A stretch of DNA of 64,000 nt from an uncultured Rhodocyclaceae bacterium (GTDB lineage Bacteria > Pseudomonadota > Gammaproteobacteria > Burkholderiales > Rhodocyclaceae), in NCBI GenBank assembly GCA_934271525.1, contig CAKQRL010000001.1:184314-248313 (forward strand), given 5' to 3'. Position 1 is the stretch's first letter. Each line of letters begins with the position of its first letter. The translations under genes and the position numbers were made by a program. The notes beneath the pieces are model-generated. The model was not told the origin of the DNA. It did not search any database and saw only the letters and a list, made by a program, of their open reading frames with translations. Of the stretch, positions 1 through 64,000 are shown one piece after another.

Positions 1-181
1 CAATGCTCACATTGTTGCCAACACAAACCGAAGGTGAAAAATCGTCATTGGGGGTGAATTGCAAACCCAAATTGGTAAAAGAATTTTCGCCCAAAACAAA
101 ACCTAGGCGATTTAAATAAACCTTGCGCACCACGGCATCGCCGTAATAAAAGGCAAGCATTTTGACAAAACGCATCGGCAT
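1..181 (-). CDS. hypothetical protein, N-terminal fragment running off the window start; a possible longer form starts at ATG 269-267 if the C tract length differs
   Basis: Minus-strand ORF from ATG at 181-179 (MPMRFVKMLAFYYGDAVVRKVYLNRLGF...) stays open to position 1. An upstream ATG at 269-267 has a GGAG Shine-Dalgarno 6 nt before it and overlaps the stop of the upstream gene (TAAATG). It is 88 nt from the 181 ATG, so it is out of frame at the current C12. Confidence 0.4.
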   Translation of the reverse strand, partial: MPMRFVKMLAFYYGDAVVRKVYLNRLGFVLGENSFTNLGLQFTPNDDFSPSVCVGNNVSI

Positions 182-246
182 TTTGTCGACATTTTTAAGC
201 AAAAAATCTTTTGCGAAATTATCAAGGCTATTTAAAAAGTGATTCT

Positions 247-258
247 GGGGGGGGGGGG
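247..258. repeat. homopolymeric G12 tract (C12 on the minus coding strand)
   Basis: Direct read: 12 consecutive G at 247-258. It is the longest G/C homopolymer in the window; no other exceeds 5. Confidence 0.9.
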
Positions 259-269
259 TTAAGATTCAT

Positions 270-1409
270 TTAACGCTCCGCGTGCAAAGTCAGCAAGGTA
301 ATTTCAGAAGGCACAAAAAAGCGCACGGAAAAACCGCTCCAAAGGCCAGTGCCGCGGCTAACATAAAGTTGCATTGTTTGAGAATTTTCAGTAGAAACAT
401 TGTAATGGCCGGCAACAAAGCCATCATTGAATGCCGCAACAATGGGTTGCAAGAAAAACATCAAACCGCCGTGCGTGTGGCCAGAGAGTTGCAAATCAAT
501 GCCGGCTAGCGCATTGTTTACCGCACCACGCGGTTGATGCGCCAATAGAATTTTAAAGGTTTTGGGCTCAATGTTTTTTAATGCTTGGTGAATATCGGGC
601 TTTGTGCCGCCAAAGCGCCCTTGGCTTGGGTCGGGCGTGCCAATAATCGCCAATTTTGCTTGGTTGATATTTAAAACGCGGTGTTCGTTATCCAACATTT
701 GAATTGGCGTTTTTTTGAAAAAATTGAGCCATTCCATCGCGCCTGCGTAATATTCGTGATTGCCCGTTACGCCAAAAACGCCATAGCGTGCGCGCAAATC
801 GTAAAAGGGCGCGACTTCGGATTCTAATTGTGCAACAGGCGCATCAACATAATCGCCTGTTAAAAGTATTAAATCCGGGTTTTGCGCGTTGGCGCGCGCC
901 ACAACTTCGGCAAGCCACGCTTTGTTTAATAATTTGTGAATATGCGTGTCGGTGATTTGAATAATTTTAAAACCGTTTAAATCAGGCGGTAGATTTTTAA
1001 AAGTTAAATCAACATGGCGAATGTTTGGCACACTAATGGCGGAAACGCCACTATAAAAACCTAAAATTAAAGCGGTAATAAAAAACAAAACCGCATTTTT
1101 TGTTTGTTTATGCCAAGAAAATGGGCGTTTGAATATTTTAAAAATAATTAAAATAACATCGCGCAAAATAATCATAAACAACAAAATTAAAACCGACCCC
1201 ATTAAACTTTCGGTTATAAACAAAAGGCTTTTGGGCAATGCGGGGTTAAAAAAATCACCAGCTAAAAAATAATAAATGGCATATTTGGAGAGCATTACCA
1301 AAATAACCATTGAAAATAAAAGTTTGGTTAAACGTGTGGATTGAAGTGGGTAAATAAACCGCCAAAAAATTAAAAGAAAAACAAGAAGGGATGGAATCAG
1401 TGTGAACAT
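270..1409 (-). CDS. membrane-anchored calcineurin-like metallophosphoesterase
   Basis: N-terminal hydrophobic segments followed by phosphoesterase motifs (ITDTH, GDYVD, GNHEY, GHTH). Confidence 0.75.
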   Translation of the reverse strand: MFTLIPSLLVFLLIFWRFIYPLQSTRLTKLLFSMVILVMLSKYAIYYFLAGDFFNPALPKSLLFITESLMGSVLILLFMIILRDVILIIFKIFKRPFSWHKQTKNAVLFFITALILGFYSGVSAISVPNIRHVDLTFKNLPPDLNGFKIIQITDTHIHKLLNKAWLAEVVARANAQNPDLILLTGDYVDAPVAQLESEVAPFYDLRARYGVFGVTGNHEYYAGAMEWLNFFKKTPIQMLDNEHRVLNINQAKLAIIGTPDPSQGRFGGTKPDIHQALKNIEPKTFKILLAHQPRGAVNNALAGIDLQLSGHTHGGLMFFLQPIVAAFNDGFVAGHYNVSTENSQTMQLYVSRGTGLWSGFSVRFFVPSEITLLTLHAER

Positions 1410-1426
1410 TTTAAAAAAAATTGAAT

Positions 1427-1443
1427 GTTTACCGTGGATTTTT
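1427..1443. repeat. single arm of the CCACGGTAAAC palindromic repeat family (GTTTACCGTGGA)
   Basis: GTTTACCGTGGATTTTT lies between the metallophosphoesterase start and the era stop. Confidence 0.8.
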
Positions 1444-1450
1444 AAGATTT

Positions 1451-4981: not shown

Positions 4982-5029
4982 TTTTCCACGGTAAACGCCA
5001 AAATTTTTTGGCGTTTACCGTGGATTTTT
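4982..5029. repeat. palindromic repeat pair (TTTTCCACGGTAAACGCC-AAAATTTTTTG-GCGTTTACCGTGGATTTTTTT), terminator-like hairpin
   Basis: Perfect 16-nt inverted arms plus a T-run, abutting the tatC stop codon. Confidence 0.9.
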
Positions 5030-6072: not shown

Positions 6073-6093
6073 TCTTTTTCAAAAAAATCACGG

Positions 6094-6140
6094 GTTGACC
6101 GTGGAACATTGCAGTTTTAAAAAAATCCACGGTAAACGCC
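6094..6140. repeat. palindromic repeat pair (GTTGACCGTGGAA ... TCCACGGTAAACGCC)
   Basis: Inverted arms between tatB and tatA. Confidence 0.85.
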
Positions 6141-6148
6141 GAATTTTT

Positions 6149-6334
6149 TTACGATTTTTCATCGCTAATTTGCTTTTCTGCTGGTTTTTCAGAAGCGCCT
6201 TCTGCCATTCCCTCTTTTAAACCTTTGATGGCAGAACCCAAATCACGCCCAATGTTTGGCAATTTTTTGGTGCCGAAAATCAAGACCACAACCAACAAAA
6301 CAATTAACCAATGCCAAATGGAAAAAGTGCCCAT
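6149..6334 (-). CDS. tatA: twin-arginine translocase subunit TatA
   Basis: 61 aa, [26 protein letters not shown]. Confidence 0.85.
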
Positions 6335-8895: not shown

Positions 8896-8946
8896 CGCCG
8901 TGAAAAACCGCATTTTACGAAAAAAATCAGCGTTTACCGTGGAAAA
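8896..8946. repeat. palindromic repeat pair (degenerate arm GCCGTGAAAAACCG + GCGTTTACCGTGGAAAA)
   Basis: Between hisA and hisH. Confidence 0.7.
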
Positions 8947-8950
8947 TTGC

Positions 8951-10155: not shown

Positions 10156-10198
10156 TTTTCCACGGTAAACCAAAATTTTTTTGGTTTACCGTGGATTT
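10156..10198. repeat. palindromic repeat pair (TTTTTCCACGGTAAACC-AAAATTTTTTTG-GTTTACCGTGGATTTTG)
   Basis: Inverted arms between hisB and ccmI. The TAA inside the second arm is the ccmI stop codon. Confidence 0.9.
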
Positions 10199-12416: not shown

Positions 12417-14323
12417 TTTTTAGCCTTTAAAAATGCGAATAAACCGCCGATTGCCATCAACAGCGCACCAGCCCACAACCATGAGATAAAGGGTTTGTAA
12501 TAAACGCGCACAATCCAAGCGCCGTTGGTTTTTTCTGCATGGGCAGGTTCGGCAAGTGCTACGTAAATATCGCGCAAAATGTTGGCGTTGACGGCGGCTT
12601 CGCTCATTGGCATTGCAGAGGAATGGTAATTGCGTTTTTCAGGGTTGAGTGTGGCGATTTTTTGATTGTCTTTTTCCAACCAAAATTCGCCAACATAGGC
12701 GGTGTAATTGGGGCCTGTTTTTTGTGTAATACCTTTAAAAATCACCGAATAATCGGCAATTTCAACGTGATTTTCCACGGTCAACACCACATTTTTTTCA
12801 ATTTCAAAGGTTGAGACCATTGCCGCGCCAAGCACAAAAACCGCCACACCCAAATGCCCCAGATGCATACCCAAAAAATCCAAGGGCAAAGGCGCTTGAC
12901 TTTGTTTGATGCGGTTAAAAATATGCGCGAGTGCGCCAAAAAAAATCCAAAAAGCCAAAAACAACGCCAAAAAACTTGTGGTTTGGAATTTTTTGTAAAT
13001 GGCTAAAAGGGCAGTGGCGGCAACAAGGCTTAAAACAAAAGGAATTGCCAATTTTTTAAGAATGGGGGATGAATCCGACTTTTTCCAGCGCAACCACACG
13101 GCAATGCCGATAAAGAACAATAATGGAAACACAATCGGCACGAATACGGCGTTGAAGTAGGGCGGCCCAACGGAGATTTTTCCCCATTGCAAAGCGTCTA
13201 TTAAAAGCGGATACAAAGTGCCCAACAAAACCGTGCCGCAAGCAACGACTAATAAAATATTGCCTAAAAGTAAAAAACTCTCGCGTGAGATGAGCGAAAA
13301 CCGCGCGCCCAAGCCCACTTTTGGTGCGCGTAAGGCAAATAAAAATAAGGATGAACCGATGACAAGGCTTAAAAAAATCAAAATAAACACGCCGCGTTTG
13401 GGGTCTGTGGCAAAGGCATGAACGGAGGTTAAAACGCCCGAGCGCACCAAAAATGTGCCTAACAACGACAAAGAAAACGCCGAAATTGCCAACAACACCG
13501 ACCAATTTTTAAAACTGCCGCGTTTTTCCGTAACAAGCAAGGAATGCAAAAGCGCCGTGCCGATGAGCCACGGCATAAAAGAAGCGTTTTCTACTGGATC
13601 CCAAAACCACCAGCCGCCCCAGCCGAGTTCAAAATATGCCCACCACGAGCCAACCGCAATGCCAAGCGTTAAAAAAATCCACGCCAACAAGGTCCAAGGG
13701 CGTGATTTTTTAGCCCATTCTGTGTTGACTTTGCCTGAGATGAGCGCCGCCACAGCAAAGGCATAAGCCAAGGAAAAACCGACATAACCCATATAAAGCA
13801 AAGGCGGGTGAATAATCATTCCAATATCTTGCAAAAGCGGATTCAAATCGCGCCCGTTGAGTGCCATTGGCAACAAGCGATTAAAAGGGTTGGAGCTTGC
13901 CAAAATAAAGAGCAAAAAACCAAAAGAAATCAGCGCCAACACGCCCAACACCTGCGCACGAAAAAAGGGTGGAATGTTTTTGGAATTGCAAACAAAGGCA
14001 GCGCTCCACCAGCCCATCATCACAATCCAGAGCAAGAGCGAACCTTCATGCCCGCCCCAAATTGCCGCGAATTTGTAAAAAGCAGGGAGATTGTTGCCAG
14101 AATTTTGGGCAACGTATGCCACGGAAAAATCATCCGTTAAAAAAGCAAAAGCCAAGGCAGCAAAGGCGATTGTGGTTAAAAACGAGAGCGCCAAATTGGC
14201 GGGCGCTGCAAAATTCACCCAAGCCAAGCGGCCTTTTTGCGCGCCCAAAATCGGCAACACGCCCGCAGGCAAAGACAAAACCAATGCCAACACCAAGGCA
14301 AAATGTCCGAATTCAATAATCAT
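12413..14323 (-). CDS. ccmF: cytochrome c heme lyase subunit CcmF
   Basis: 636 aa polytopic membrane protein with a WGGWWFWD tryptophan-rich motif. Confidence 0.9.
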
Positions 14324-14781
14324 TGTTGTGGTTTTTCTTGTAAGGTTTTTGCCAGCCCCCGCGCGTGTGCTTCTCCTAGTGCTTGGGCGGCTTCGGGCGG
14401 CATATAGTTTTCATCGTGTTTTGCCAAAACTTCTTGCGCCACAAATACGTTGTTTTCAATTCTGCCTTGCGCCACAACGCCTTTGCCTTCCGAAAACAAG
14501 TCGGGCAGAATGCCTTGGTAAATCACGGGAATATCGGTTTCGGTATCCGTTACCACAAAGTTTATTTTTAAGGAATTGGCTTCTCTTTTAACTGATTCAT
14601 TTTTCACCATACCGCCCAAGCGAAAAACTTTGTTTTTTGGTGCTTTGCCAGCGGCAATGTCGGTGGGCGAAATATAAAAGGCAATGTTGCTGTTTAAAGC
14701 ATTCAAAACCAAAGCGGCAATAGCGCCCAAAATGGCAAGTGCCACAGCGATGATGATTAGTTTTTTGTGGCGTAGTTTCAT
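14320..14781 (-). CDS. ccmE: cytochrome c maturation heme chaperone CcmE
   Basis: 153 aa, N-terminal transmembrane segment, conserved FRLGG and heme-binding region. Confidence 0.9.
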
Positions 14782-14782
14782 T

Positions 14783-14800
14783 TTTCCACGGTAAACAAAT
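14783..14800. repeat. single arm of the palindromic repeat (TTTTTCCACGGTAAAC) between ccmD and ccmE
   Basis: Immediately upstream of the ccmE start codon, inside the operon. Confidence 0.8.
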
Positions 14801-14814
14801 AATTTTTTTGAAGT

Positions 14815-16407: not shown

Positions 16408-16697
16408 TGTTAAAATTTTTTTTGGTCTACCGTGGAAAAGCGCCGATTCTACGAAAAAACAGCGGTTTTTTAAAAAAAATCGGCGTTTACCGTGGAAAAA
16501 CGCGCTTGAAACGAATTGGCTGAAACGTTTTTTAAAAAATGTGGTTTTCAATGAAAACGCCGATTTTAACGAATCAAAAAAGCAGAAAACGAGATTTTGC
16601 GCGTTTGTTTTTCAAAAAAAATTTTTGTTTACCGTGGAAAAACGCCGATTTTAAAGAATCAAAAAATTAAAAAAAGCGTGTTTTGAAAGCGATTTTT
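16408..16697. repeat. tandem array of about 3-4 degenerate direct repeat units, each headed by TACCGTGGAAAA(A/G)CGCCGATT(T/C)TA...GAATCAAAAAA, inside the ccm operon
   Basis: Three same-orientation copies of the core 12-mer (about 16426, 16487, 16626), plus a fourth unit lacking the core (about 16545), in a 290-bp non-coding gap between ccmA and ccmB. Confidence 0.85.
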
Positions 16698-17365: not shown

Positions 17366-17420
17366 TTTCCACGGTAAACCGAATGTTTTTTTGAAAATTT
17401 TGAAAGGTTTACCGTGGAAA
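17366..17420. repeat. palindromic repeat pair (TTTTCCACGGTAAACC ... GGTTTACCGTGGAAA)
   Basis: Inverted arms with a TTTTTTTGAAAATTTTGAAAG spacer between ccmA and yicC. Confidence 0.9.
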
Positions 17421-19279: not shown

Positions 19280-20244
19280 TGAGCTTTGAAATCTTCCAAG
19301 AAAGTCGACTCGGTCAACGCAAAAATAACGAAGACCGCGTGGGTTATTGTTATTCCAAAAATTCCGTGTTGATGGTAGTGGCGGACGGCATGGGCGGCTA
19401 TGAACACGGCGAAGTGGCTTCTCAAATTACGCTTCAAACCTTAACAGACGTTTTTCGCCAAAAGGTTTTAAAAGGTTTTAGGGATCCAAAAGCCTTTTTG
19501 TTGGATGGCATTTTGGCTGCGCATCGGGCAATTACCGAATATGCGCTTGATCACTTCACCGATTTTCCGCGTTCAACCGTGGTTGTTTGTTTGATTCATA
19601 AAGAAAAAGCCTATTGGGCGCACGCGGGCGATTCGCGTTTGTATGTTTTGCGCAACGGGCAGGTTTTCTTTAAAACGCACGACCATTGCCGAGTCAATGA
19701 TTTATTTGAAGCTGGGCAAATCACCGCCGAAGAAGCGCACAATCACCCCGACCGAAACAAAATTTACAGTTGTTTGGGCGGCACCATTACGCCGATTATT
19801 TCCATTTCCGACCCATTATTGATGAAAGCAGGCGATATTATTCTGCTTGCCACAGACGGGCTTTGGGGCAATGTTGATGACGCATCAATGATTAACGCCT
19901 TTGGCACGCAGCCCTTTACCGATTCAATGAGTCATTTGTTGGATTTGGCAGAACAAGGTGGCGGCAAGTTTTGCGATAACTTATCAACCGTGGCGCTTTT
20001 GTGGGATGGCGAGGTCTCTGAATACAGCATTACGCCTGAGGACTTGGCGAAAAATGAAGTGAAGATGGAAAAAGCCGAGCCTTATGCCCAAGATGTTGCC
20101 GCCGTGGAAGAAAGCAACAATGAAGCACCACCCGAGGTTGCGCGCGAAATTGAAGACGTGTTTGCCGATTTGCGCGCTGTTTTGGAAAAAAATCAGCCCA
20201 AAAAGCCCAAGAAAAACAACAAGATTTTCTACCCACGGCGCTAA
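19279..20244 (+). CDS. PP2C-family Ser/Thr protein phosphatase
   Basis: MVVADGMGG and DGLWG metal-binding motifs. Start overlaps the kinase stop (ATGA). Confidence 0.8.
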   Translation: MSFEIFQESRLGQRKNNEDRVGYCYSKNSVLMVVADGMGGYEHGEVASQITLQTLTDVFRQKVLKGFRDPKAFLLDGILAAHRAITEYALDHFTDFPRSTVVVCLIHKEKAYWAHAGDSRLYVLRNGQVFFKTHDHCRVNDLFEAGQITAEEAHNHPDRNKIYSCLGGTITPIISISDPLLMKAGDIILLATDGLWGNVDDASMINAFGTQPFTDSMSHLLDLAEQGGGKFCDNLSTVALLWDGEVSEYSITPEDLAKNEVKMEKAEPYAQDVAAVEESNNEAPPEVAREIEDVFADLRAVLEKNQPKKPKKNNKIFYPRR

Positions 20245-20246
20245 AA

Positions 20247-21518
20247 TTGTTTGGGTTGACCGTGGAAAAAATAAGCAATTTGCCGTTTGAATGGTTGTTG
20301 GGTTTGCGTTATACGCGTGCGCGGCGGCGCAACCATTTTATTTCGTTTATTTCGGTTATCGCTATTTTGGGCATTGCCTTGGGTGTGGCGGCGTTAATCG
20401 TTGTTATGTCGGTGATGAACGGTTTTCAAAGCGAATTGCGCGAACGCATTTTGGGCGTGGTCTCCCACATTCAAGTTAGCGCCATGGATGGCCATTTAAG
20501 CGATTGGCAAAAGGTTCGCCAAAACGCTTTAAAACACCCCGAAGTTTTAGCCGCCGCCCCTTTTGTGCAATCGCAGGTGATGATTTCATCTTCCCGCGCA
20601 AAAGGCGCCATTGTTCGCGGCATTGACCCAACCTTGGAAGAAGGCGTTGCGGCATTTGCGCAATCCATGAAAAAAGGGCAATACGAGGCTCTAAAACCGG
20701 GCAGTTTCGGCGTTATTTTGGGCGAAGATTTGGCGCGAGCAATAGGCGTAGGTTTGGGCGATTCGGTGATGATGATTGCGCCTGATGCGGACATTTCCAT
20801 CGCAGGAATTTTGCCAAGAATGAAGCGGTTTTCTGTTGTTGGCATTTTTTCGGTTGGTATGTATGAATACGATTCGGGTTTGGTGTTGATGAATCTTGCC
20901 GATGCGCAGGTTTTTTTCAAAATGGACAATGCCGTCTCTGGCGTGCGTTTGAAAACGCGCGATTTGTTCCGCGCGCCCGCCATTGTTTTGGACTTGGCTC
21001 AAACCCTAAACACGCACGCGTGGCTTACCGACTGGACGCAAAGCCATGCGAATTTTTTTCGCGCCGTGCAAATTGAAAAAACAATGATGTTTATCATTTT
21101 GTCTTTAATTGTTGCTGTTGCCGCTTTCAACTTGGTTTCCACTTTGGTAATGGCGGTAACAGATAAAGAATCGGATATTGCCATTTTGCAAACCTTGGGC
21201 GCTACGCCCCGTTCAATTATGTTGATTTTCATTATTCAAGGCGCCATTTTGGGTATTTTTGGTTTGGTTCTTGGCATTGCAGGCGGCGTGGCGCTTGCTT
21301 TGAATATTGATGTGGTTGTGCCTTTTATTGAAAACCTTTTTAACGTGCAATTTTTATCCAAAGAGGTTTACTACATTTCCGATTTGCCAAGCGAATTGCA
21401 TTGGCAAGACGTTTTTGGCGTTGCGCTAATGGCGCTTGTTTTGGCTTTTGTTGCAACAATTTATCCAAGCTACCGCGCATTAAAAATCAACCCTGCCGAT
21501 GCTTTGCGCTATGAATAA
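20247..21518 (+). CDS. lolC: lipoprotein-releasing system transmembrane permease (LolC/E, or a single LolF-type)
   Basis: N-terminus GLRYTRARRRNHFISFIS resembles E. coli LolC. FtsX domain. Only one permease gene precedes lolD. The true start may be the GTG at 20262 inside a repeat arm. Confidence 0.8.
   Translation: MFGLTVEKISNLPFEWLLGLRYTRARRRNHFISFISVIAILGIALGVAALIVVMSVMNGFQSELRERILGVVSHIQVSAMDGHLSDWQKVRQNALKHPEVLAAAPFVQSQVMISSSRAKGAIVRGIDPTLEEGVAAFAQSMKKGQYEALKPGSFGVILGEDLARAIGVGLGDSVMMIAPDADISIAGILPRMKRFSVVGIFSVGMYEYDSGLVLMNLADAQVFFKMDNAVSGVRLKTRDLFRAPAIVLDLAQTLNTHAWLTDWTQSHANFFRAVQIEKTMMFIILSLIVAVAAFNLVSTLVMAVTDKESDIAILQTLGATPRSIMLIFIIQGAILGIFGLVLGIAGGVALALNIDVVVPFIENLFNVQFLSKEVYYISDLPSELHWQDVFGVALMALVLAFVATIYPSYRALKINPADALRYE
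20256..20273. repeat. single repeat arm (GTTGACCGTGGAAAAAAT) inside the 5' end of lolC
   Basis: Encodes L-T-V-E-K at the lolC N-terminus. Confidence 0.7.
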
Positions 21519-22180: not shown

Positions 22181-22313
22181 TTTTCCATGGTCAACGCAGA
22201 TTTTTTTTGAAAATTTTAAAAGGTTGACCGTGGATTTTAAGCAGAAAGCATTTGGATTTATTTAAAAAAATCCACGGTAAACGTGAAAAAAATTTGACGT
22301 TTACCGTGGAAAA
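22181..22313. repeat. cluster of four repeat arms (two inverted pairs) in the convergent lolD/cheA intergenic region
   Basis: TTTTCCATGGTCAACGC, GGTTGACCGTGGATTTT, TCCACGGTAAACG, CGTTTACCGTGGAAAA. Confidence 0.85.
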
Positions 22314-24206: not shown

Positions 24207-24965
24207 TTAAAAGCCAAGGCTATCCAAGAGCTCATCGACTTGTTCTTGATTCACCACCACATCCGTTCGGCCTTGTGCGTTGATGACAGGTCCTTGCAAC
24301 ATACTGCTGACCTCTTCGGTTTTCTTCGTTTCTGGCACAACTTGCAACAAGACGCTCATCAAACTTGTTTCTAGATCTTGGGTAACTTCAATGATTTTTT
24401 TAATCACCTGACCGGTTAAATCTTGAAAATCTTGCGCCATTACAATTTCCATCAACTGCGCGTGCAACATGGCGTTTTTGGTTTTGAGGTCTTCGTTTAA
24501 GAATTTTTTGGTATCCAGCGCCAACTGCCGCAAACCGTTTGAATCCAAGCGATTCGCAAATAAATCATCCCAACGCTTGGATAGCGCCGCCGCAGAATTA
24601 TTCACTTGTTCTAATAACGGATTGGCAATATCCGTGGCGTTTAAAACGCGCCCTGCCGCTTGTTCGGTAAGATTGGCCACATACGCCAAGCGCGCTTTGG
24701 TATCGGGCATAGCCGACATATTTTTTTCTAACATTTTGTCGTAACCCAACTGCCCCAAAGTATCGTGCAAAGAACGGGTCATTTGCCCCAGTTGATTAAA
24801 AACGTTTTCTTGGGTATTAGACCAATTTTCCACGGTAGACGCGGAATTTTTTTGAGAATTGGAAGAAGCGCTCGCGGCAGTTGCAGCAGGCTCAGCGGGA
24901 TGATTGTTGGCAGCAATGGAATCAAATAAGGCTTCTAATTCGTCAGAATCGTTGGTGGCAGTCAT
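24207..24965 (-). CDS. cheZ: CheY-P phosphatase CheZ
   Basis: C-terminal ...DQEQVDELLDSLGF matches the CheZ C-terminal CheY-binding peptide. Sits between cheY and cheA. Confidence 0.8.
   Translation of the reverse strand: MTATNDSDELEALFDSIAANNHPAEPAATAASASSNSQKNSASTVENWSNTQENVFNQLGQMTRSLHDTLGQLGYDKMLEKNMSAMPDTKARLAYVANLTEQAAGRVLNATDIANPLLEQVNNSAAALSKRWDDLFANRLDSNGLRQLALDTKKFLNEDLKTKNAMLHAQLMEIVMAQDFQDLTGQVIKKIIEVTQDLETSLMSVLLQVVPETKKTEEVSSMLQGPVINAQGRTDVVVNQEQVDELLDSLGF
24829..24845. repeat. single repeat arm (TTTTCCACGGTAGACG) inside cheZ coding sequence
   Basis: Encodes ...STVENW... in CheZ. Confidence 0.6.
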
Positions 24966-27365: not shown

Positions 27366-27415
27366 CCCACGGTAAACCTTTATTTTTTTCAAAAAAAGAG
27401 GCGTTTACCGTGGAT
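27366..27415. repeat. palindromic repeat pair (CCCACGGTAAACC ... GCGTTTACCGTGGAT)
   Basis: Inverted arms with a TTTATTTTTTTCAAAAAAAGAG spacer. Confidence 0.85.
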
Positions 27416-29649: not shown

Positions 29650-29707
29650 TTTCCACGGTAAACCTTTAAAAACTTTCAAAAAAACTTTTTGTTTACCGTG
29701 GATTTTT
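29650..29707. repeat. palindromic repeat pair (TTTTCCACGGTAAACC ... GTTTACCGTGGATTTTT)
   Basis: The TAA stop of the M50 peptidase gene lies within the second arm. Confidence 0.9.
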
Positions 29708-30519: not shown

Positions 30520-30582
30520 AAAATCCACGGTCAACGGCTAAAAAATTTTAAAAAAAATCAACGTTTACCGTGGAAAAACGCC
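30520..30582. repeat. palindromic repeat pair (AAATCCACGGTCAACGG ... ACGTTTACCGTGGAAAAACGCC)
   Basis: Inverted arms upstream of the M50 gene and downstream of tsaC. Confidence 0.85.
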
Positions 30583-31229: not shown

Positions 31230-31238
31230 TTTAAAATC

Positions 31239-35405: not shown

Positions 35406-35462
35406 TTTTCCACGGTAAACGCCAAAAAATTTTCAAAAAAATGCAAGGTTTACCGTGGAATT
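35406..35462. repeat. palindromic repeat pair (TTTTCCACGGTAAACGCC ... GGTTTACCGTGGAA)
   Basis: Inverted arms with an AAAAAATTTTCAAAAAAATGCAAG spacer between purC and guaA. Confidence 0.9.
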
Positions 35463-37128: not shown

Positions 37129-37978
<850 letters not shown>

Positions 37979-37988
37979 TTTTCAAAAT

Positions 37989-38105
37989 TCCACGGTAAAC
38001 GTTTTGTTTTTTATCGCTGTTGATCGTGAAAAGTCATTTTTTCGCAAAAATCCACGGTAAACGCTAAAAAGTTTTGACAAAAAGAATCCGTTCACCGTGG
38101 ATTTT
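37989..38105. repeat. cluster of repeat arms (TTCCACGGTAAACG; degenerate TGATCGTGAAAAG; TCCACGGTAAACGC; CGTTCACCGTGGATTTT)
   Basis: Intergenic region between the FkbM gene and hxlR. Confidence 0.85.
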
Positions 38106-38948: not shown

Positions 38949-38995
38949 TTACACGGTAAACTTCAAAAAAATTGCGGGTTTACCGTGGATTTTTG
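38949..38995. repeat. palindromic repeat pair (TTACACGGTAAAC ... GGGTTTACCGTGGATTTTT)
   Basis: Downstream of the cupin gene. Confidence 0.85.
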
Positions 38996-39237: not shown

Positions 39238-39274
39238 AACGAAAAGTCGCTGTGCGATTTTTTGCAGATAAAAG

Positions 39275-41964: not shown

Positions 41965-42021
41965 TTCCCACGGTAAACTCCAAAAAATTTTGAAAAAAAT
42001 GCGGCGTTTACCGTGGAAAAT
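41965..42021. repeat. palindromic repeat pair (TTTCCCACGGTAAACTCC ... GCGTTTACCGTGGAAAA)
   Basis: The TAA stop of kdsB lies inside the second arm. Confidence 0.9.
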
Positions 42022-42775: not shown

Positions 42776-42818
42776 TTTTGAAAAAAATGAAACGTTGACC
42801 GTGGAAAACAGCGAAAAA

Positions 42819-43936: not shown

Positions 43937-43982
43937 TCAAGATTCCTTTTTCAAAAAAATTTTCAGTTGACCGTGGAAAAAA

Positions 43983-45809
<1,827 letters not shown>

Positions 45810-45832
45810 TTAAAAAAAATTTTGGGTTCACC

Positions 45833-48800
45833 GTGGAAAATTCCAAAAATTTGCCAAACTTGCCGATTTTTGAAAAGGAATCGGCGATTGTTGCCGCATT
45901 AGAAAAAAATCAAGTCGTTATTGTTGCCGGCGCCACAGGTTCGGGCAAATCCACGCAACTTGCCAAAATTGTTTTAAAAGCAGGCTTGGGGCAGAAAATT
46001 GCCCACACGCAACCGCGCCGCTTGGCGGCAAGAACCTTAGCCGCTCGGGTTGCTGATGAATTAAATATGCCAATAGGCAGCGGCGTGGGTTTGGAATTGC
46101 GTTTTGTAAATGAAACAAGCGAGAATGATTGTATTACTTTTTTAACCGATGGTTTATTACTTTCTAAAATAACGCGCGATAAACTTTTAAATCAATACGA
46201 TACCATTATTATTGACGAAGCGCACGAGCGGAGTTTGAATATTGATTTTCTCTTGGCGTATTTAAAAATTTTAATTCAAAAACGCAAAGATTTAAAAATA
46301 ATTATTACCAGCGCCACGATTGATACCGATAAATTTTCAAAACATTTTAATAATGCACCGATTATTGAAGTATCAGGCAAGTTATTCCCCGTAAATATTC
46401 ATTATTTAAATGAAGAAATGGCGAATGTGGATTTGTTAGAAAAAACAGCCGATATTGTAGAAAATTTAAATGGTAAAAAAGGCGATATTTTAATTTTTTT
46501 AGGGGGTGAAAAGGATATTGCAGAAACAATTAAAATATTGCGCAAACGCCCAAGTTTGAAAAACATGGAATTTTTGCCGCTTTATGCGCGATTAGCGCCA
46601 CAAAAACAAGCGCGGGTTTTTGAATTATCAAAAACACAACGCGTGATTTTGGCAACCAACGTGGCCGAAACTTCGCTCACTGTGCCGAATATTCGCTTTG
46701 TGATTGATTGGGGTTTGGCAAGAATCAAACGTTACGCTTACCACCAAAGAATTGAACGCCTGCCGATTGAAAAAATTTCGCAAGCCTCGGCAAATCAACG
46801 CGCAGGGCGCTGCGGGCGACTTTCAAGCGGCGAATGTTTTCGGCTTTATACCCAAAGCGATTTTGAAACTCGCCCCGCTTTTACGCCGCCCGAGATTTTG
46901 CGCGCAAATTTGGCGAATGTGGTTTTAAAAATGCGGGCATTGCATTTTAATAATACGGATTTATTTTTGGAATCTCCGCCTCAAAAAGCGTGGAGCGATG
47001 CGGAAAAAACCTTAAAAGAATTGAATGCTTTAAATGAAAATAACGGTTTAACAAAAATAGGAAAACGTTTAGCCGATTTGCCCATTGACGCGCGGCTTGG
47101 ACGCATTTTATTAGCAGCGGAACATTTAAATGTTTTAAATGAAATGCTAATTATTGTTGCTGCTATTTCTGTGCCTAATTTATTAGATGAAAATCCACGG
47201 TCAACTGAATATTTTTTTGAAAAAAATAATCCGTTTACCGTGGAAAAACAGCGTTCTGTTTTTATGGATTATTTATCATTATGGAATAAAAGAAAAAACA
47301 ACCATTCGCCAAAGTTTAAAGAATGGAGTGAGATTTATTTTCAACTCAAAAAAATATTTCAACCGAAAAAATCTGTTTTAAAATCTGCCCCAGATTTTTA
47401 TAAAAAAATACACGGCGCGATTTTAACCGGTTTTTTGGGTTTTATCGGCTTTAAAAGCGATGAAAAAGGTTTATACCAAGGCGTTAAAAATCTGCGTTTT
47501 TATTTGCACCCGAAATTAACAATTAAAAATCCACCGCGTTGGATTGTGGCAAACGAGTTGGTTGAAACAAGCCGACTTTTTGCCAGCGCCTTTGCGCAAA
47601 TTGAACCCGAATGGATTGAATCAGCGGCTTATAACTTAATTCAAAAACAATTTTTGGAACCGCATTGGGAAAAAAAATCGCAAGCCGTCATTGCTTATGA
47701 AAAAATTACGCTTTGGGGTTTAACGATTATTCCCAAACGGCGTGTTTTGTTTGGAGAAAAAGATAAAGCATTGTCGCGCCAAATATTTATTCAAAATGCC
47801 TTGGTACAAATGGATTTGCCTGTGGCGTTTTTAAACCGATGGGCATTTATTCAAAATAATTTAAAAATTATTCAAAAAATAAAAGAAATGGAAATAAAAC
47901 AACGGCGGCAAGATATTTTAATTGATGATAGTTTGATTTTTGATTTTTACAATGCGCATATTGATGCCAATGTTTATGATTTGAAAAGTTTTGAAGTGTG
48001 GTTGAAACATAACCCCAAAACGCTATTTTTATCGCAAAAAGATTTGATGAATCACCAAGCCAATGGCATAACCAATGAAAAATTTCCATCCTTTTTAAAA
48101 ATTGGTGAAAAAGCATATCCCTTGATTTATAACTTTGCGCCCAATGATGCAATGGATGGCGTTACTATTCAAATACCGCTATTGGATTTAAAAAACATTC
48201 CCTCCAAATGTTTGGAATGGTTGGTGCCCGGACTCATTAAAAACAAAGTATTGTTTTTGCTCAAAAGCTTGCCGCAAAAATACCGCGTGAAGATTCAACC
48301 ATTAGAAACTTTTACTGATGATTTTTTGGCAAAAGAAGATTTAAATTTAAACGATGGCATTGTTTTTAATCTTATTCAATTCATGCGCACAAAATACGCT
48401 TTTGAATCGCGAGGGTGGGCATTAAATGAACAACTTTTTCGCACAGAGAACCTGCCGCATTATTTTTTGATGAATGTTGAATTATTAGATGAAAATAAAA
48501 ATCGCTTGGCACTCTCACGCAATATTGATGATTTAAAAACACAATTTAAAGAATCCGCCAAAAAAGTGTTTGTTGCGCATATTCCAAAAGAAGAAACACA
48601 AGATTTTAAAAATTGGGATTTTGGCGATTTGGATGATTTGATTGAGTTAACCATCGCTGGCGAAAATGTGATTGGTTATCCAGCTTTGTGTTTTGAAAAA
48701 AATCGTTTGTTTTTAAACGTTTTTGATGATTTGGATTCTGCTACTTTGAATCATAAAATCGGTTTGTTGGAATTATTTCAGCGCGTTTTGAATGTTTATA

Positions 48801-49440: not shown

Positions 49441-49505
49441 AATCCACGGTCAACCGATTATTATTTTGATATTGTTAGTGTTTTTGTTCGTTGACCGTGG
49501 GAAAA
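49441..49505. repeat. palindromic repeat pair with a longer spacer (AATCCACGGTCAACCG ... CGTTGACCGTGGGAAAA)
   Basis: Convergent intergenic region between hrpA and the hypothetical gene. Confidence 0.85.
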
Positions 49506-50360: not shown

Positions 50361-51176
50361 TTAAAGTTTTTTATTATTTTCCACGGTAAACGATGATTTT
50401 TTTTGAAAATGGCAATAAGAAAATAGAATGAAGCCTATCAAAATCATTGGCAAAGATAACCATTGTCCCATTGAAATGAAATAAGATTTGCCAAAAATGC
50501 CATCGTCTGGTTCTCTAAAAAACTCGGTGATAAAACGGCAACAACCATAACCAATTAAGAAAATAGCCGAGATTTTGCCTTGTTGTTTGGGTTTATAAAA
50601 CCACAACAAACAAAATAATAAAGCGCCTTCTAATAACATGTGGTAAATCTGTGATGGGTGGCGCGGCAACAAAGAACCCGATTGTGGAAAAACCATTGCC
50701 CACGGCAAATTGGCGTTTGTTATTCTGCCCCACAATTCGCCGTTAATAAAATTGCCTAATCGCCCAAACATTAAACCAAGCGGCACAAGTGGGGCGATAA
50801 AATCGGTGAGTTTTAACCACGCCATTTTGTTTTGATAAACAAAAATAGAAACGGCAAACAAAACGCCCAAAAAACCACCGTGAAAACTCATTCCGCCTTG
50901 CCAAATTTTGATGATTTCAAATGGTTGGTGAAAATAATAAATGGGATTATAAAAAAGCACTTCGCCCAAGCGCCCGCCCAAAATAATGCCGATAAAGGCG
51001 TAAAATAATAAATCGTCAAATTGTTGATGATTTAAAGGCGCTTGGTTTTGTTTGATTAAATAACGCCCCAAAAAGAGCGCTTGTAAATAAGCCAAAACAT
51101 ACATTAAACCATACCAATGAATTTTAAAAAATCCTAAATCAAGCGCCACGGGGTTGAAGTTGGGATGCGTTAACAT
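50361..51176 (-). CDS. lgt: prolipoprotein diacylglyceryl transferase Lgt
   Basis: N-terminus FKIHWYGLMYVLAYL resembles E. coli Lgt (VALHWYGLMYLVGFI). Polytopic, 271 aa. The last 9 codons (FTVENNKKL) are encoded by a repeat arm. Confidence 0.9.
   Translation of the reverse strand: MLTHPNFNPVALDLGFFKIHWYGLMYVLAYLQALFLGRYLIKQNQAPLNHQQFDDLLFYAFIGIILGGRLGEVLFYNPIYYFHQPFEIIKIWQGGMSFHGGFLGVLFAVSIFVYQNKMAWLKLTDFIAPLVPLGLMFGRLGNFINGELWGRITNANLPWAMVFPQSGSLLPRHPSQIYHMLLEGALLFCLLWFYKPKQQGKISAIFLIGYGCCRFITEFFREPDDGIFGKSYFISMGQWLSLPMILIGFILFSYCHFQKKSSFTVENNKKL
50377..50392. repeat. single repeat arm (TTTTCCACGGTAAACG) forming the 3' end of the lgt ORF
   Basis: Encodes ...FTVEN of the Lgt C-terminus on the minus strand. 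Confidence 0.7.
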
Positions 51177-53539: not shown

Positions 53540-53554
53540 AAAATCCACGGTCAA
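53540..53554. repeat. single repeat arm (AAATCCACGGTCAAC)
   Basis: Upstream of cobB. Confidence 0.8.
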
Positions 53555-53583
53555 CTTGAAAAAAATTCAAAAAAAACAAAACA

Positions 53584-55054: not shown

Positions 55055-55072
55055 AATTGTTTCAAAAAAATT

Positions 55073-55090
55073 ACACGTTTACCGTGGAAA
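55073..55090. repeat. single repeat arm (CACGTTTACCGTGGAAAA)
   Basis: Follows the phasin terminator. Confidence 0.8.
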
Positions 55091-55160
55091 ATTTTATTTT
55101 TTTAGGCAAAATATAGTTTTTAAAATGTAGAATGTAGAAAAGCAACAGCGGGTTTTTGTT

Positions 55161-56622: not shown

Positions 56623-56679
56623 TTTTCCACGGTAAACGTTTAAAAACTTTGAAAAAAAGAAATCGTTCACCGTGGAAAA
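56623..56679. repeat. palindromic repeat pair (TTTTCCACGGTAAACG ... CGTTCACCGTGGAAAA)
   Basis: Inverted arms with a TTTAAAAACTTTGAAAAAAAGAAAT spacer downstream of the toxin gene. Confidence 0.9.
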
Positions 56680-59097: not shown

Positions 59098-59115
59098 AAA
59101 ATCCACGGTCAACCG
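59098..59115. repeat. single repeat arm (AAATCCACGGTCAACCGC)
   Basis: Between flaG and fliD. Confidence 0.8.
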
Positions 59116-59156
59116 CAAATTTTTTTGAAAGTTTTGTTAAAAAAAGGACAAAGAAA

Positions 59157-61339: not shown

Positions 61340-61448
61340 AAAAGAAAGTTTGTGAATGGTTTTGCCACACCACGCAGGCAAAGTTTTACACCCAAAAATC
61401 ATCAAAGATTTGTTTAATGTGTTGGAGCGTGCAAGGTTTTTGTAAAAT

Positions 61449-61511
61449 TCCACGGTAAACCGATGTTTTTTTCAAAAAAATAATGCGTTTACCGTGGAAA
61501 ATCGCTATTAA
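61449..61511. repeat. palindromic repeat pair (TTCCACGGTAAACC ... GCGTTTACCGTGGAAAA)
   Basis: Inverted arms with a GATGTTTTTTTCAAAAAAAATAAT spacer. Confidence 0.9.
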
Positions 61512-61545
61512 AATGAAAAAGTTTTAAAGAAAAAGGAGCGTAAAA

Positions 61546-61803
61546 ATGTCCGCCGTTTTAAAACCTGTGGAAGAGCCGACTGATGAAATAACCATTCGCA
61601 TTGCCAAAAAAATCAGCAATGCTTATGCCCGTTATGCCGACATTTTGAATATGCCCAAGGAAGAGTTGCTCGCCCGAGCGTTGGACGCTTTTGTGGAAGA
61701 AATGCACGATGCGGCGGCAATTTTGGAAGCCCGCAAAGCCACCGCCGCAGGCGAGAGAACTTACACTTGGGAAGAAGTGCAAAGAGAAAATGGGCTCATA
61801 TAA
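61546..61803 (+). CDS. putative antitoxin (partner of a truncated RelE/ParE toxin)
   Basis: 85 aa. Overlaps the start of a RelE-like fragment by 14 nt. Confidence 0.4.
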   Translation: MSAVLKPVEEPTDEITIRIAKKISNAYARYADILNMPKEELLARALDAFVEEMHDAAAILEARKATAAGERTYTWEEVQRENGLI

Positions 61804-61915
61804 AATCACCTACACGCCACACGCCCGCAAGCAATTCAAAAGTTTGGATAAATCGGTGCAACGCCGCATTCAAAAATTTTTAAGCGAAGTGGCAGCGCTT
61901 GGTGAAATTTATTAA
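61790..61915 (+). pseudogene. truncated RelE/ParE-family toxin (N-terminal 41 codons only)
   Basis: MGSYKITYTPHARKQFKSLDKSVQRRIQKFLSEVAALGEIY* matches the first half of the RelE/ParE consensus, then stops. Confidence 0.5.
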
Positions 61916-61939
61916 ACAATTTTTAAGAAAGATAACATT

Positions 61940-62401
61940 GTGAGCATTCCATTTTTCCAACCAAAAATTTTGAATAAAGCGTGGGTTTTGTCTGGTGTTT
62001 TGTGGCGAGATGATTTTACAGACGAAGCACGTCAAGGCGCCATTAATGCGGTTAAAGGCAAATATTTTGAATTGTGGGGTGCGGAATTTTTAAAAGATGT
62101 GTTGCCTTGTGGTTATTCTGCGGAATTAGCCGATTCCAAAGTTCAAAAAGGTTGGGATTTAAAGATTTTGAACGCCCACAAGAAAGCGACAGATTTTTTG
62201 CAAGCCAAGGCAACATCTTGCACGGCGTATGTTTATGAATCGCTTGTGCGTTATCCGCAATTTCGGGTTTTGACCACCCACGAAGTGGCGAAAAAAATGC
62301 GCCCTAAAAAGTTTAATAAAACGGAATTTGTTTGGGATTCTGGAATGTTAAACACCGATTTGGGCGAGTGGATTGCAGAAGAATTTTCTAAAAAATACTA
62401 A
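61940..62401 (+). CDS. hypothetical protein (153 aa, GTG start)
   Basis: ORF immediately after the toxin remnant. No recognisable motifs. Confidence 0.4.
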   Translation: MSIPFFQPKILNKAWVLSGVLWRDDFTDEARQGAINAVKGKYFELWGAEFLKDVLPCGYSAELADSKVQKGWDLKILNAHKKATDFLQAKATSCTAYVYESLVRYPQFRVLTTHEVAKKMRPKKFNKTEFVWDSGMLNTDLGEWIAEEFSKKY

Positions 62402-62422
62402 TTTGTTTTTTAATTTTTAATT

Positions 62423-62520
62423 TTTTCCACGGTAAACAAAAAGTTTTTTTGAATTTTTTTTTTGATTGTTTAAGGCGCCAAGCCGACTTTTAAAAAAAAT
62501 CTGCGTTTACCGTGGATTTT
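62423..62520. repeat. palindromic repeat pair with a long spacer (TTTTCCACGGTAAAC ... GCGTTTACCGTGGATTTT)
   Basis: Contains a T11 run. Upstream of the response regulator gene. Confidence 0.85.
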
Positions 62521-62560
62521 TATTTTAAAATTTTCCACAATTTTTGAGCTTGGGGGCGCT

Positions 62561-63259
62561 ATGAAAGAAAGAATTTTGCTGGTGGAAGACGATGAACGCT
62601 TGGCTTCAATCACAGCGGAATATTTAACCAAAAATAATTTTGACGTGAAAATTGAAGGCCGTGGTGATGCAGCCGAAGAACGCATTGTGCGCGAAGCGCC
62701 TGATTTGGTGATTTTGGATGTGATGTTGCCCGGCAAAGATGGCTTTGAAGTTTGCAAAGCCGTGCGTGATAAATACGCCGGCATCATCTTAATGCTGACC
62801 GCGCGCGATGAAGATTATGACCAAATTTTGGGTTTGGAATTGGGCGCTGATGATTACATTGCTAAGCCCGCGCAGCCGCGCGTTTTATTAGCCCGAATCA
62901 AAGCCTTGTTGCGCCGCAACCATGCAAGCGATTGGGCAACGGATGCCGAAACCTTGCAATTTGGCGCTTTTAAAATCAGCCAGCAGACGCGAAGCGCCAC
63001 TTTGAACCAAGAAAATATTGATTTGACCACGGCGGAATTTGATTTGTTGTGGTTAATGGCAACGCATGCGGGCAGTGTTTTGTCGCGCGATGATTTGTTG
63101 CAAGAGTTGCGCGGCATTGGTTTTGATGGTTTGGATCGCTCAATTGATGCGCGAATTTCACGCTTGCGCCGCAAGTTAAATGATGACCCGGACAATCCCA
63201 AACGCATCAAAACCGTGCGCGGCAAGGGTTATTTGTTCAGCAAATATGATTGGGATTAA
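62561..63259 (+). CDS. OmpR-family two-component response regulator
   Basis: REC (ILLVEDDERL, DLVILDVMLPGKDG) plus a winged-helix transcriptional-regulatory domain (RSATLNQENIDLTTAEFDLLWLMATHAG ... VRGKGYLF). Confidence 0.9.
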   Translation: MKERILLVEDDERLASITAEYLTKNNFDVKIEGRGDAAEERIVREAPDLVILDVMLPGKDGFEVCKAVRDKYAGIILMLTARDEDYDQILGLELGADDYIAKPAQPRVLLARIKALLRRNHASDWATDAETLQFGAFKISQQTRSATLNQENIDLTTAEFDLLWLMATHAGSVLSRDDLLQELRGIGFDGLDRSIDARISRLRRKLNDDPDNPKRIKTVRGKGYLFSKYDWD

Positions 63260-64000
63260 ACCTTTTGTGCGTTTATTTCAACGGCAGCGCCGTGGACCAT
63301 ATCGCTTATTGCGGCTTTTTTTGAATTTTTATGTGATTTTCATCGGCGCTTTTGTGGCGATTGCATTTAGCGCCGATTATGTGATTAGTCGCGCGCAACA
63401 CGAGCGCATTGAAGAATACGCGCGCCGTTTTATGCAAGGCACCATTACGATGATAACAACCGATTTGGATCGTTATCCCGTTGTGCTTTGGAGCATTCGT
63501 CTGCAACAATTACAAGCGCATTTTTCTTACCGCCTGCGTATTTTTAAGCGTGAAGAAATCGCGCAACTCTTGCCACAAGTGCGTGATTTGGATGCCTTGG
63601 ATGAAGGCGACATTGTGGTGAATTTTCCTGCCAAAATGATGTATCAGCGGCTTGGCAACACGCCTTTTATTTTGGCTATTGGCCCGTTTTCAAAAGATTT
63701 GCAAAGTCCAGAAGATAGCGCCTCTTTGCCTTTGGAAGCGCGAATGCGGCTTTTGACGTGGTCGCTAATGGCGTTTTTGTTTGCGGTGGTTTTGTATTTT
63801 TGGCTGCGCCCCATTGTGCGCGATTTGGAAAATATGCGCCAAGCCGCCGCCCTTTTTGGCACGCAACGCCGCGACATTCACACGCGGGTGAAAACAAATT
63901 TGTTTGCGCCGTTGTCTATTGCTTTTAATTCAATGATTCGCCGCATTGATGAGCTTTTGCAAACGCACAAGGAATTAACCAGCAGCATCTCGCACGAGTT
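63246..64000 (+). CDS. sensor histidine kinase, partial (runs off the window end)
   Basis: Overlaps the response regulator stop. Two transmembrane segments flank a periplasmic domain, then a HAMP-like region and the start of the H-box (LTSSISHEL). Confidence 0.75.
   Translation, partial: MIGIKPFVRLFQRQRRGPYRLLRLFLNFYVIFIGAFVAIAFSADYVISRAQHERIEEYARRFMQGTITMITTDLDRYPVVLWSIRLQQLQAHFSYRLRIFKREEIAQLLPQVRDLDALDEGDIVVNFPAKMMYQRLGNTPFILAIGPFSKDLQSPEDSASLPLEARMRLLTWSLMAFLFAVVLYFWLRPIVRDLENMRQAAALFGTQRRDIHTRVKTNLFAPLSIAFNSMIRRIDELLQTHKELTSSISHE

Follow-up and report, generated by a model that had tools for sequence, protein, structure and literature searches.

For more than 40 years, the Pasteurellaceae and the Neisseriaceae have been the only two bacterial families with documented sequence-specific DNA uptake, and a 2025 survey continued to treat uptake sequences as limited to these two classical families. 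The published hallmarks of such sequences are accumulation at permissive sites, inverted-repeat pairs, reading-frame bias, evolution by point mutation and, in the uptake signal sequences (USS) of the Pasteurellaceae, a core accompanied by AT tracts; the tracts of the Haemophilus USS contribute to uptake, probably via DNA shape. Here we describe a repeat with the core CCACGGTMAAC that occurs at about 40 loci in a 64-kb stretch of DNA from an uncultured bacterium (the whole stretch, whose first lines are shown above, is referred to as the window). Judging from its sequence, the repeat is best explained as a DNA-level recognition motif rather than as a transcript feature or a transposable unit. 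We give an even chance to the more specific proposal that it is a third, independently evolved family of uptake signals with a USS-like architecture, which some part of an uptake machine based on type IV pili would read and which would have spread through recombination biased by uptake.

The USS (Hin-type AAGTGCGGT, Apl-type ACAAGCGGT) follow the same bipartite plan as the repeat, a strongly conserved core and then AT-rich tracts at a fixed distance 3' of it, and share with it a non-palindromic form, a density of about 1 per kb, equal use of the strands, inverted pairs in spacers and coding copies made by substitution in favored frames. The letters common to the cores are limited to ...CGGT, however: the USS core is GTGCGGT or AAGCGGT, in contrast to CCACGGT here, and the crucial inner GCGG reads ACGG. 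USS also have two WWWWWW tracts, whereas the repeat has one T7 and AAAA, its intergenic bias is much stronger, and the hosts of USS are Gammaproteobacteria, unlike the Rhodocyclales-affiliated betaproteobacterium considered here. Because ACGG replaces the essential GCGG and the host lies outside the Pasteurellaceae, we do not regard the repeat as a USS.

The DNA uptake sequences (DUS) of the Neisseriaceae (AT-GCCGTCTGAA and relatives, with the receptor ComP) occur in the same bacterial class as the host of the repeat; they are 12-mers present about once per kb and making up about 1–3% of the genome, likewise form frequent inverted pairs at gene ends and shift between variants ("dialects") among related species, and their hosts are likewise host-associated bacteria with a type IV pilin and a type II-C-like CRISPR-Cas9 system (CRISPR, clustered regularly interspaced short palindromic repeats). 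However, a CTG core is invariant in all DUS dialects, whereas our motif lacks both CTG and its complement CAG; aligned without gaps, it matches AT-DUS at 7 of 12 positions at best, with the CTG positions mismatched. DUS also have no conserved AT tract, and the closest relatives of the host protein GuaA and the label of a related genome suggest a host outside the Neisseriaceae. Since the CTG core is missing and the host is, by the available evidence, not a member of the Neisseriaceae, the repeat is not a DUS either, and an earlier note on this DNA had rightly stated that it matches no dialect of either kind, there being no CTG core and no GCGG core. A search of the searchable literature for the motif strings returned chance primer matches only, and a literature search found no paper linking uptake sequences to Rhodocyclaceae.

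In cyanobacteria, HIP1 (GCGATCGC) is likewise a short word of very high abundance that is present in both coding and non-coding DNA and is kept in place rather than transposed. It is a perfect palindrome of 8 bp, has no tract at its flanks and shows no strong preference for intergenic DNA, and in these respects differs from the asymmetric motif of about 34 nt described here.

Architecture of the repeat unit

With all copies placed in one orientation, the unit is an asymmetric motif of about 34 nt, A(-5)-WWW-T(-1)-CCACGGT-M-AAC-S-NNN-AA-TTTTTTT-S-AAAA, composed of a 12-bp core (T-CCACGGT-M-AAC) and, at a fixed distance, an AT tract (AATTTTTTT-S-AAAA). The core and the T that precedes it carry 1.6–2.0 bits per position and the T-run 1.0–1.8 bits, and the four positions after the core carry 0.06–0.31 bits. 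The AATTTTTTT element lies at +15 to +23 (1–1.8 bits) and AAAA at +25 to +28 in single units, in pairs and in all three species in which the motif was found, and the alternation of near-invariant and random (N) positions within 34 nt is the same in each of these species. The interleaving of invariant and random positions points to position-specific constraint and not to shared descent; positions near 2 bits set against N positions near 0 bits fit a recognition site rather than copies of a master element.

About 22 units stand alone and retain the AT tract without a partner arm, the best candidate partner having at least four mismatches, and these singles are conserved as well as the arms of pairs. 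A single unit is not palindromic and contains no internal stem except for a weak T7/A4 tract. The commonest spacer between paired cores is exactly 27 nt (9 of the 16 pairs), an arrangement in which two complete units overlap and share one tract, the T7 of the first serving as the A7 of the second. What the earlier note had described as a conserved spacer is the AT tract that belongs to each unit.

Abundance and distribution

The exact word CCACGGTMAAC occurs 49 times in the window, compared with 0.02 occurrences expected from dinucleotide-preserving shuffles, an enrichment of about 2,500-fold with the two strands equally used (25 copies on the plus strand and 24 on the minus strand). Allowing up to one mismatch yields 57 arms, which resolve into 16 face-to-face pairs and 25 unpaired matches; two of the latter have degenerate partners and one (at 50144) is a chance match, leaving 22 true singles and a total of about 40 loci. 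These counts bear out the hyper-abundance, the roughly 40 loci and the roughly 55 arms reported in the earlier note, all seven of whose example positions are genuine pairs, and the strand check that it had proposed shows no bias. Its statement that the repeat follows nearly every transcription unit was too broad: 27 of the 42 spacers of at least 30 nt (64%) carry a unit, and these include the intra-operon spacers tatA-tatB, hisH-hisA and ccmD-ccmE as well as some divergent promoter regions. A polar motif of the Chi or KOPS (FtsK-orienting polar sequence) type was rejected because strand use is equal (25:24).

Motif units make up 2.7% of the window and 26% of its intergenic bases. Their density is 10.8 per kb in convergent, 8.5 per kb in tandem and 5.5 per kb in divergent spacers, and overall 8–11 per kb in intergenic DNA compared with 0.17 per kb in coding sequences. 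Single units show no orientation bias relative to the direction of transcription (14:9, p = 0.4).

The family is not confined to this region; such confinement was a condition that the earlier note had named as speaking against its proposal. Over 91 kb of this species (the window and its flanks from other assemblies) the density is 0.84 per kb; in a related metagenome-assembled genome (MAG) labeled "Rhodocyclales bacterium" it is 0.96 per kb, with copies in all eight sampled stretches (seven contigs), and in a third species, whose GuaA is 79% identical, it is 0.60 per kb. The over-representation and equal strand use seen in the window, together with the presence of the motif at 0.60–0.96 per kb in every stretch sampled from three species, agree with what is general for uptake sequences, which are enriched hundreds- to thousands-fold at about 1 per kb on both strands. 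Uptake sequences are also typically sparse in recently acquired DNA such as prophages and islands. No clear island was apparent in the accessible DNA; the cas9 region has one motif copy in 3.9 kb and a strain-variable segment (contig L027) has 0.64 copies per kb. At least 12 genome contigs match the motif pattern, and among the matches listed 4 of 12 are isolated chance palindromes in unrelated genomes. A scan of viral contigs gave only two unrelated contigs of 63% GC, and the exact core was absent from 16 kb of high-GC (62%) Rhodocyclaceae relatives (two outgroup contigs).

The pairs in the window, including those with a decayed arm and given without strand, are as follows.

4986..5023: pair, 16-nt spacer, between a dynamin-like gene and tatC
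10160..10194: pair, 13-nt spacer, between a ccmI-like tetratricopeptide repeat (TPR) gene and hisB
17369..17417: pair, 27-nt spacer, two overlapped units
22185..22233: pair, 27-nt spacer, downstream of lolD; kept at the orthologous site in the third species (L021)
22272..22309: pair, 16-nt spacer, downstream of cheA; on the minus strand a T-run follows the stem
27367..27413: pair, 25-nt spacer; a separate canonical terminator adjoins at 27417–27448
29653..29701: pair, 27-nt spacer
30525..30573: pair, 27-nt spacer
35410..35458: pair, 27-nt spacer, upstream of guaA; kept at the orthologous site in L021
37041..37076: pair on the downstream side of guaA whose right arm has decayed (2 mismatches); arranged differently in L021
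37990..38029: unit whose partner arm is strongly decayed
38052..38100: pair, 27-nt spacer, located between convergent genes
38951..38988: pair, 16-nt spacer
41968..42016: pair, 27-nt spacer
47195..47243: complete pair inside the hrpA frame, encoding NPRSTEYFFEKNNPFTVEK; no insertion relative to homologs
49444..49500: pair, 35-nt spacer, downstream of hrpA
56627..56675: pair, 27-nt spacer
61450..61497: pair, 26-nt spacer

The single units are the following.

1409..1442, minus strand: AT tract reaches the ATG of the next gene
6076..6109, minus strand: between tatA and tatB, back-to-back with 6122..6155
6122..6155, plus strand: between tatA and tatB
8914..8947, minus strand: between hisH and hisA
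12770..12803, plus strand: inside the ccmF coding sequence (13 residues); gap-free against 6zmq
14781..14814, plus strand: forms the whole ccmD-ccmE spacer; the genes overlap in outgroup L030
16407..16440, minus strand: GTAGAC variant, ccmA-ccmB spacer
16467..16500, minus strand: ccmA-ccmB spacer
16609..16642, minus strand: ccmA-ccmB spacer
20237..20270, minus strand: over the lolC start (LTVEK); kept in L021, where the core-internal GTG is the annotated start
24825..24858, plus strand: one mismatch, inside the cheZ coding sequence (QKNSASTVEN)
31236..31269, minus strand: covers the end of one gene (final codons and TGA stop) and the ATG of the following gene
32941..32974, minus strand: inside the rsuA coding sequence (QKNLPLTVEN); gap-free against 1vio
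42776..42809, minus strand: single unit
43948..43981, minus strand: single unit
45808..45841, minus strand: GTGAAC variant, divergent thiC-hrpA spacer
50376..50409, plus strand: in the C-terminal codons of lgt (SSFTVENNKKL)
53540..53573, plus strand: single unit
55059..55092, minus strand: followed by a separate canonical hairpin and T-run
59098..59131, plus strand: between flaG and fliD
62422..62455, plus strand: single unit
62487..62520, minus strand: single unit

Several genes start 18–25 nt past a core (at 1409–1442, 42776–42809 and 6076–6109), so that their leader is the U-rich tract of the unit; these leaders contain no recognizable Shine-Dalgarno sequence. In lolC of the related species L021, the GTG within the core is apparently used as the start codon. 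We also considered the motif as a promoter, with TTGAAA in the tract or the complementary TTGACC as a −35 box, and rejected this on finding start codons 4–30 nt from the unit and an inconsistent orientation. By-eye comparison with the consensus sequences of sigma-54, CRP/FNR, LexA, IHF and NrdR gave no match.

Copies within coding sequences

Exact cores occur seven times in coding sequences, compared with 0.11 expected from codon shuffling. The complete pair in hrpA (47195–47243) aligns with the ERPxDxQQAADxxHxRFxDxx segment of Escherichia coli HrpA and 15 diverse homologs at a cost of only two additional residues; the conserved proline of the ERP motif is encoded by the CCA of the motif core, and the forward arm is of the C variant, which avoids a TAA stop codon. 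A protein search with the HrpA fragment returned only fragmentary matches of at most 44% identity, which were usable for this test of insertions and deletions, and a scan of Joint Genome Institute (JGI) metagenomes with HrpA returned only one distant and irrelevant locus. The copies in ccmF and rsuA align without gaps to their solved homologs (6zmq and 1vio, respectively). In all three genes homologous residues are replaced, with a change in length of 0 to +2 residues, and because the coding copies add so little we conclude from these alignments that they were built by substitution and not by insertion. A substitution origin of coding copies is also the property by which Redfield and colleagues demonstrated that USS "are not inserted elements".

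At every coding locus, four in mid-gene and three at gene ends, it is the reverse complement of the unit that lies on the coding strand, in a single reading frame, such that the encoded peptide is [EQ]KNxx[LFS]TVE[NK]. The in-place origin and the reading-frame bias known from uptake sequences are therefore both seen in the coding copies; among the non-coding copies, some spacers are longer than those of the outgroup. As a separate observation on hrpA, the protein encoded here is without about 19 residues that are found in all 15 aligned homologs; the gap follows LWNKRKNNH (window 47270–47300) and sits immediately downstream of the in-frame pair.

Conservation among strains and species

Twelve strain contigs (99.2–99.8% identity; 45 kb, about 38 arms) showed no presence/absence polymorphism of any unit. 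In the third species (L021), copies stand at the same three sites: ahead of guaA, behind lolD and over the start codon of lolC; at these shared sites the neighboring spacer DNA and the N positions have diverged, and the site downstream of guaA is rearranged. Both related low-GC species carry the motif, with a shift in the preferred variant, position 7 being A in 61% of copies here, C in 64% of copies in the related MAG and predominantly C in both relatives, and the 62%-GC relatives are without the motif. Lineage-specific variants, as known for uptake sequences, are thus seen across the three species and two outgroup contigs that were compared.

The cytochrome c maturation (ccm) operon differs in its spacers from the 62%-GC outgroup L030, in which ccmA/ccmB and ccmD/ccmE overlap by 4 nt; here these genes are about 300 nt and 33 nt apart, respectively. 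The ccmA-ccmB spacer (16401–16698) contains three co-oriented units, a decayed fourth copy and tandem duplications of about 70 nt, and the 33-nt ccmD-ccmE spacer is essentially one unit.

These comparisons bear on the proposal that the units are small non-autonomous mobile elements (resembling miniature inverted-repeat transposable elements, MITEs; repetitive extragenic palindromes and bacterial interspersed mosaic elements, REP/BIME; or Rickettsia palindromic elements, RPEs) copied into new sites by a transposase whose gene lies elsewhere. The palindromic pairs with their rather even size and dominant 27-nt spacer, a density akin to that of REP families, the tandem duplications and the extra sequence that the non-coding units represent relative to an outgroup with overlapping genes would fit this proposal, and REP/BIME with their REP-associated tyrosine transposases (RAYTs), MITEs such as Correia elements and RPEs are likewise abundant, short, mostly intergenic, often palindromic and occasionally located in reading frames. 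However, random N positions beside invariant core positions are the opposite of what descent from a master copy would leave, and about 22 singles would be non-palindromic half-elements. The coding copies replace homologous residues where an insertion would add about 19, and in this they are unlike RPEs. Apparent target-site duplications (mean 4.3 nt, compared with 3.6 nt in controls) do not extend beyond the A/T runs of the motif itself; insertion polymorphism is absent from the 12 strain contigs and copies are fixed at orthologous sites in another species. Neither the terminal inverted repeats of MITEs, nor a duplication, nor an interior conserved by descent was found. The Pfam matches in the window include no transposase or RAYT domain and no Y1-transposase domain, for which the genome as a whole was not searched, and the unit, in contrast to REP/BIME, is not a palindrome. 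We therefore regard a mobile origin as improbable, and the earlier note's case for a MITE-like element, made from the conserved spacer, does not survive: the spacer is also present in singles, its N positions are random, and neither target-site duplications, insertion polymorphism nor inserted coding copies were found.

Integron attC sites, imperfect palindromes (RYYYAAC...GTTRRRY) that follow promoterless cassettes beside an intI gene, were considered separately: GGTCAAC...GTTGACC resembles their ends with one mismatch in each arm. This candidate was rejected on the position of the units in housekeeping operons on both strands and the frequency of singles; no integrase is present among the Pfam matches in the window.

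Two further observations concern variation among the strains. In one of them (L027, 1–9363) the genes ligA, a Mur ligase gene, a SPOR protein gene, cvpA, purF, a glycosyltransferase gene and dsbB lie to the left of window position 61925, where they stand in place of the fliC-flaG-fliD-fliS cluster; the breakpoint of this rearrangement (61925) is not at an element. An (AG)16 tract at 37129–37170 comes immediately after the start codon (ATG) of a gene for an FkbM/RfbT-like methyltransferase; the strain contigs have 5 to 16 repeats here and annotated proteins of 252 to 328 residues, and the gene looks like a phase-variable contingency locus.

Hairpins and terminators

The pairs form stem-loops, as predicted in the earlier note, with folding energies of −13 to −29 kcal/mol. 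An ATTTT opens every unit, and a pair therefore reads TTTT-stem...stem-AAAA; the tail on the transcribed strand is usually AAAAT, with at least five T in eight positions after the stem in only about 6 of 19 cases, and the T-runs of the pairs lie mostly within the loop rather than after the stem, where the earlier note had placed them. The order of an intrinsic terminator, a GC-rich stem-loop with a U-run immediately behind it at the end of a transcription unit, is not the order usually seen here. Ordinary terminators with a GC-rich stem and a T-run that are unrelated to the repeat occur at 39273–39301 (bidirectional, with an A-run and a T-run) and at 27417–27448, beside a pair, and an Rfam scan of the whole window gave no match.

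That the pairs act mainly at the RNA level, as intrinsic terminators or hairpins that stabilize 3' ends, with the singles as decayed halves, is in our view quite unlikely. The folding energies, the highest density in convergent spacers and the roughly six hairpins that have a T-run on their far side as met by incoming transcription can be read in its favor, as can the fact that inverted-repeat copies of known DUS and USS mostly coincide with predicted terminators. Against these stand the AAAAT tail in about two thirds of cases, the units between co-transcribed genes (tatA-tatB, hisH-hisA and ccmD-ccmE), the full pair in the middle of hrpA, the singles, which are as conserved as pair arms and keep their AT tract, the absence of orientation bias, the separate conventional terminators, one of them right beside a pair, and the lack of an Rfam match. 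The hairpins are better viewed as a by-product of inverted pairing that only sometimes doubles as a terminator. The earlier claim of a terminator-forming element mostly fails on the tail, the intra-operon units, the singles without a hairpin and the separate canonical terminators. We consider both the MITE and the terminator readings largely refuted.

A candidate DNA uptake signal

Two kinds of protein that might read the motif can be weighed. The motif may be bound by an abundant protein of the cytoplasm, such as a nucleoid-associated, architectural or global regulatory factor, with each site kept by selection for chromosome organization or gene-boundary insulation and with no link to uptake. 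We think this rather unlikely, less so than a mobile or transcript-level origin. A recognition-type logo next to an AT tract typical of bend-sensitive binders, conservation of sites at orthologous gene boundaries, independence of orientation and the presence of units in 26% of intergenic bases and 64% of the longer spacers all accord with such a protein. Site-by-site selection, however, explains neither three co-oriented tandem units in one spacer nor a shift in variant between species that affects all sites together, and we are not aware of a factor whose sites, at about one per kb, also arise in full within coding regions, in one case as an entire inverted pair.

The alternative that we favor is an uptake signal. 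We know of no sequences other than DNA uptake sequences that combine an asymmetric logo, about one copy per kb on both strands, accumulation at permissive sites, coding copies made in place in one frame and lineage-specific variants. By this analogy, the recognizing protein would be part of an uptake machinery and uptake would be biased. We hypothesize that the mechanism is that established for DUS and USS: the motif would be bound preferentially by a protein exposed on the cell surface as part of an uptake machine built on type IV pili, and motif-carrying fragments from relatives would be taken up and recombined more often, so that mutations improving the match would spread (molecular drive, possibly aided by selection). 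Copies would accumulate where tolerated, mainly in intergenic spacers but also in protein segments under loose constraint, there in the one frame whose residues are benign ([EQ]KNxx[LF]TVE[NK]); inverted pairs are two units sharing their T7/A7 tracts, with hairpins as a by-product. A type IVa major pilin gene (170 residues; L024 12720–13232, minus strand) lies about 1.3 kb beyond the left edge of the window and is flanked on both sides by element pairs. The predicted protein has N_methyl and Pilin domains and a C-terminal cysteine pair, and its best PDB match is PAK pilin. The uptake-like part of the earlier composite proposal (an uptake-sequence-like, terminator-forming and perhaps MITE-like element) accordingly stands on indirect tests, namely density, strand use, logo, coding copies, variants and the nearby pilin gene, whereas its terminator part is mostly unsupported and its MITE part is unsupported.

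Several points weigh against the uptake proposal. The organism is uncultured, and the motif is known here from sequence alone. The major pilin gene is the one prepilin gene in about 190 kb of accessible lineage DNA, in which no ComP was found. Core positions have no single-nucleotide polymorphisms (0 of 456, compared with 0.5–1.6% elsewhere in the 12 strain contigs), a difference that lies in the expected direction but is not significant (p = 0.05–0.24) and comes from an underpowered comparison. The intergenic bias (8–11 vs. 0.17 per kb) is stronger than that of the H. influenzae USS. Finally, the spacer units look like net added DNA relative to the outgroup, unexplained by point mutation alone; because point mutation alone cannot create the ccm spacers, duplication or illegitimate incorporation must also contribute.

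Host and genomic setting

The window encodes era, tatABC, the his and ccm operons, lolCDE, che genes, guaA, phaC, thiC, hrpA, lgt, ilvD and a flagellar cluster, and has a GC content of 39–48%; it contains no tRNA genes. The nearest named relatives of its GuaA (74–75% identity) are from Azoarcus, Azospira, Propionivibrio and other Rhodocyclaceae; on these neighbors, and with the related MAG labeled Rhodocyclales, we provisionally place the host in the Rhodocyclaceae. Identical proteins occur on many contigs of European Nucleotide Archive (ENA) and Logan metagenome assemblies, and the habitat is probably the human gut, judged solely from cohort-like sample labels (NIEL14, ZEEV15, VALL22).

About 5–9 kb beyond the left edge is a type II-C-like CRISPR-Cas9 locus (cas9, cas1, cas2; L024 16900–20876, L025 16990–20876), with one motif copy inside cas9 and an array of about 17 copies of the 36-nt repeat GTTCCAGCCAGAGCACATATCTCAATCTGCTATAAT separated by spacers of about 30 nt; the array differs in length between strains. 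Small toxin-antitoxin-like genes, coding for a toxin resembling ParE, an antitoxin resembling HicB and a DUF6290 protein, lie among the flagellar genes at 56071–56606 and 61100–61803. The cumulative GC skew of the window has its minimum near 28–32 kb, and genes lie almost all on the minus strand to the left of about 32.8–45.8 kb and on the plus strand to the right; this switch resembles a replication origin or the boundary of a large inversion, and no dnaA or origin features were seen in the window.

Implications

With somewhat less than even confidence, we propose that the repeat may be the first family of DNA-uptake signals outside the Neisseriaceae and Pasteurellaceae. It would be a 12-mer of independent origin, with an AT tract like that of USS, in a low-GC lineage that is affiliated with Rhodocyclales, is uncultured and appears in metagenomes that are probably from the human gut. 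If uptake bias were confirmed, it would constitute a new class of uptake sequence in a new lineage. The lineage would then be naturally transformable with a preference for its own DNA, probably through a pilin-type receptor that reads T-CCACGGT-M-AAC, and natural transformation would extend to an uncultured member of the human microbiome. The motif would also provide a sequence tag for assigning metagenomic contigs to the lineage and a defined DNA ligand for a receptor search. The debate over neutral drive and selection in the origin of uptake signals rests on the examples of two families; a third, unrelated motif with the same layout (a core and AT tract, inverted pairs, frame-biased coding copies and species-specific variants) would be an independent replicate for that debate.

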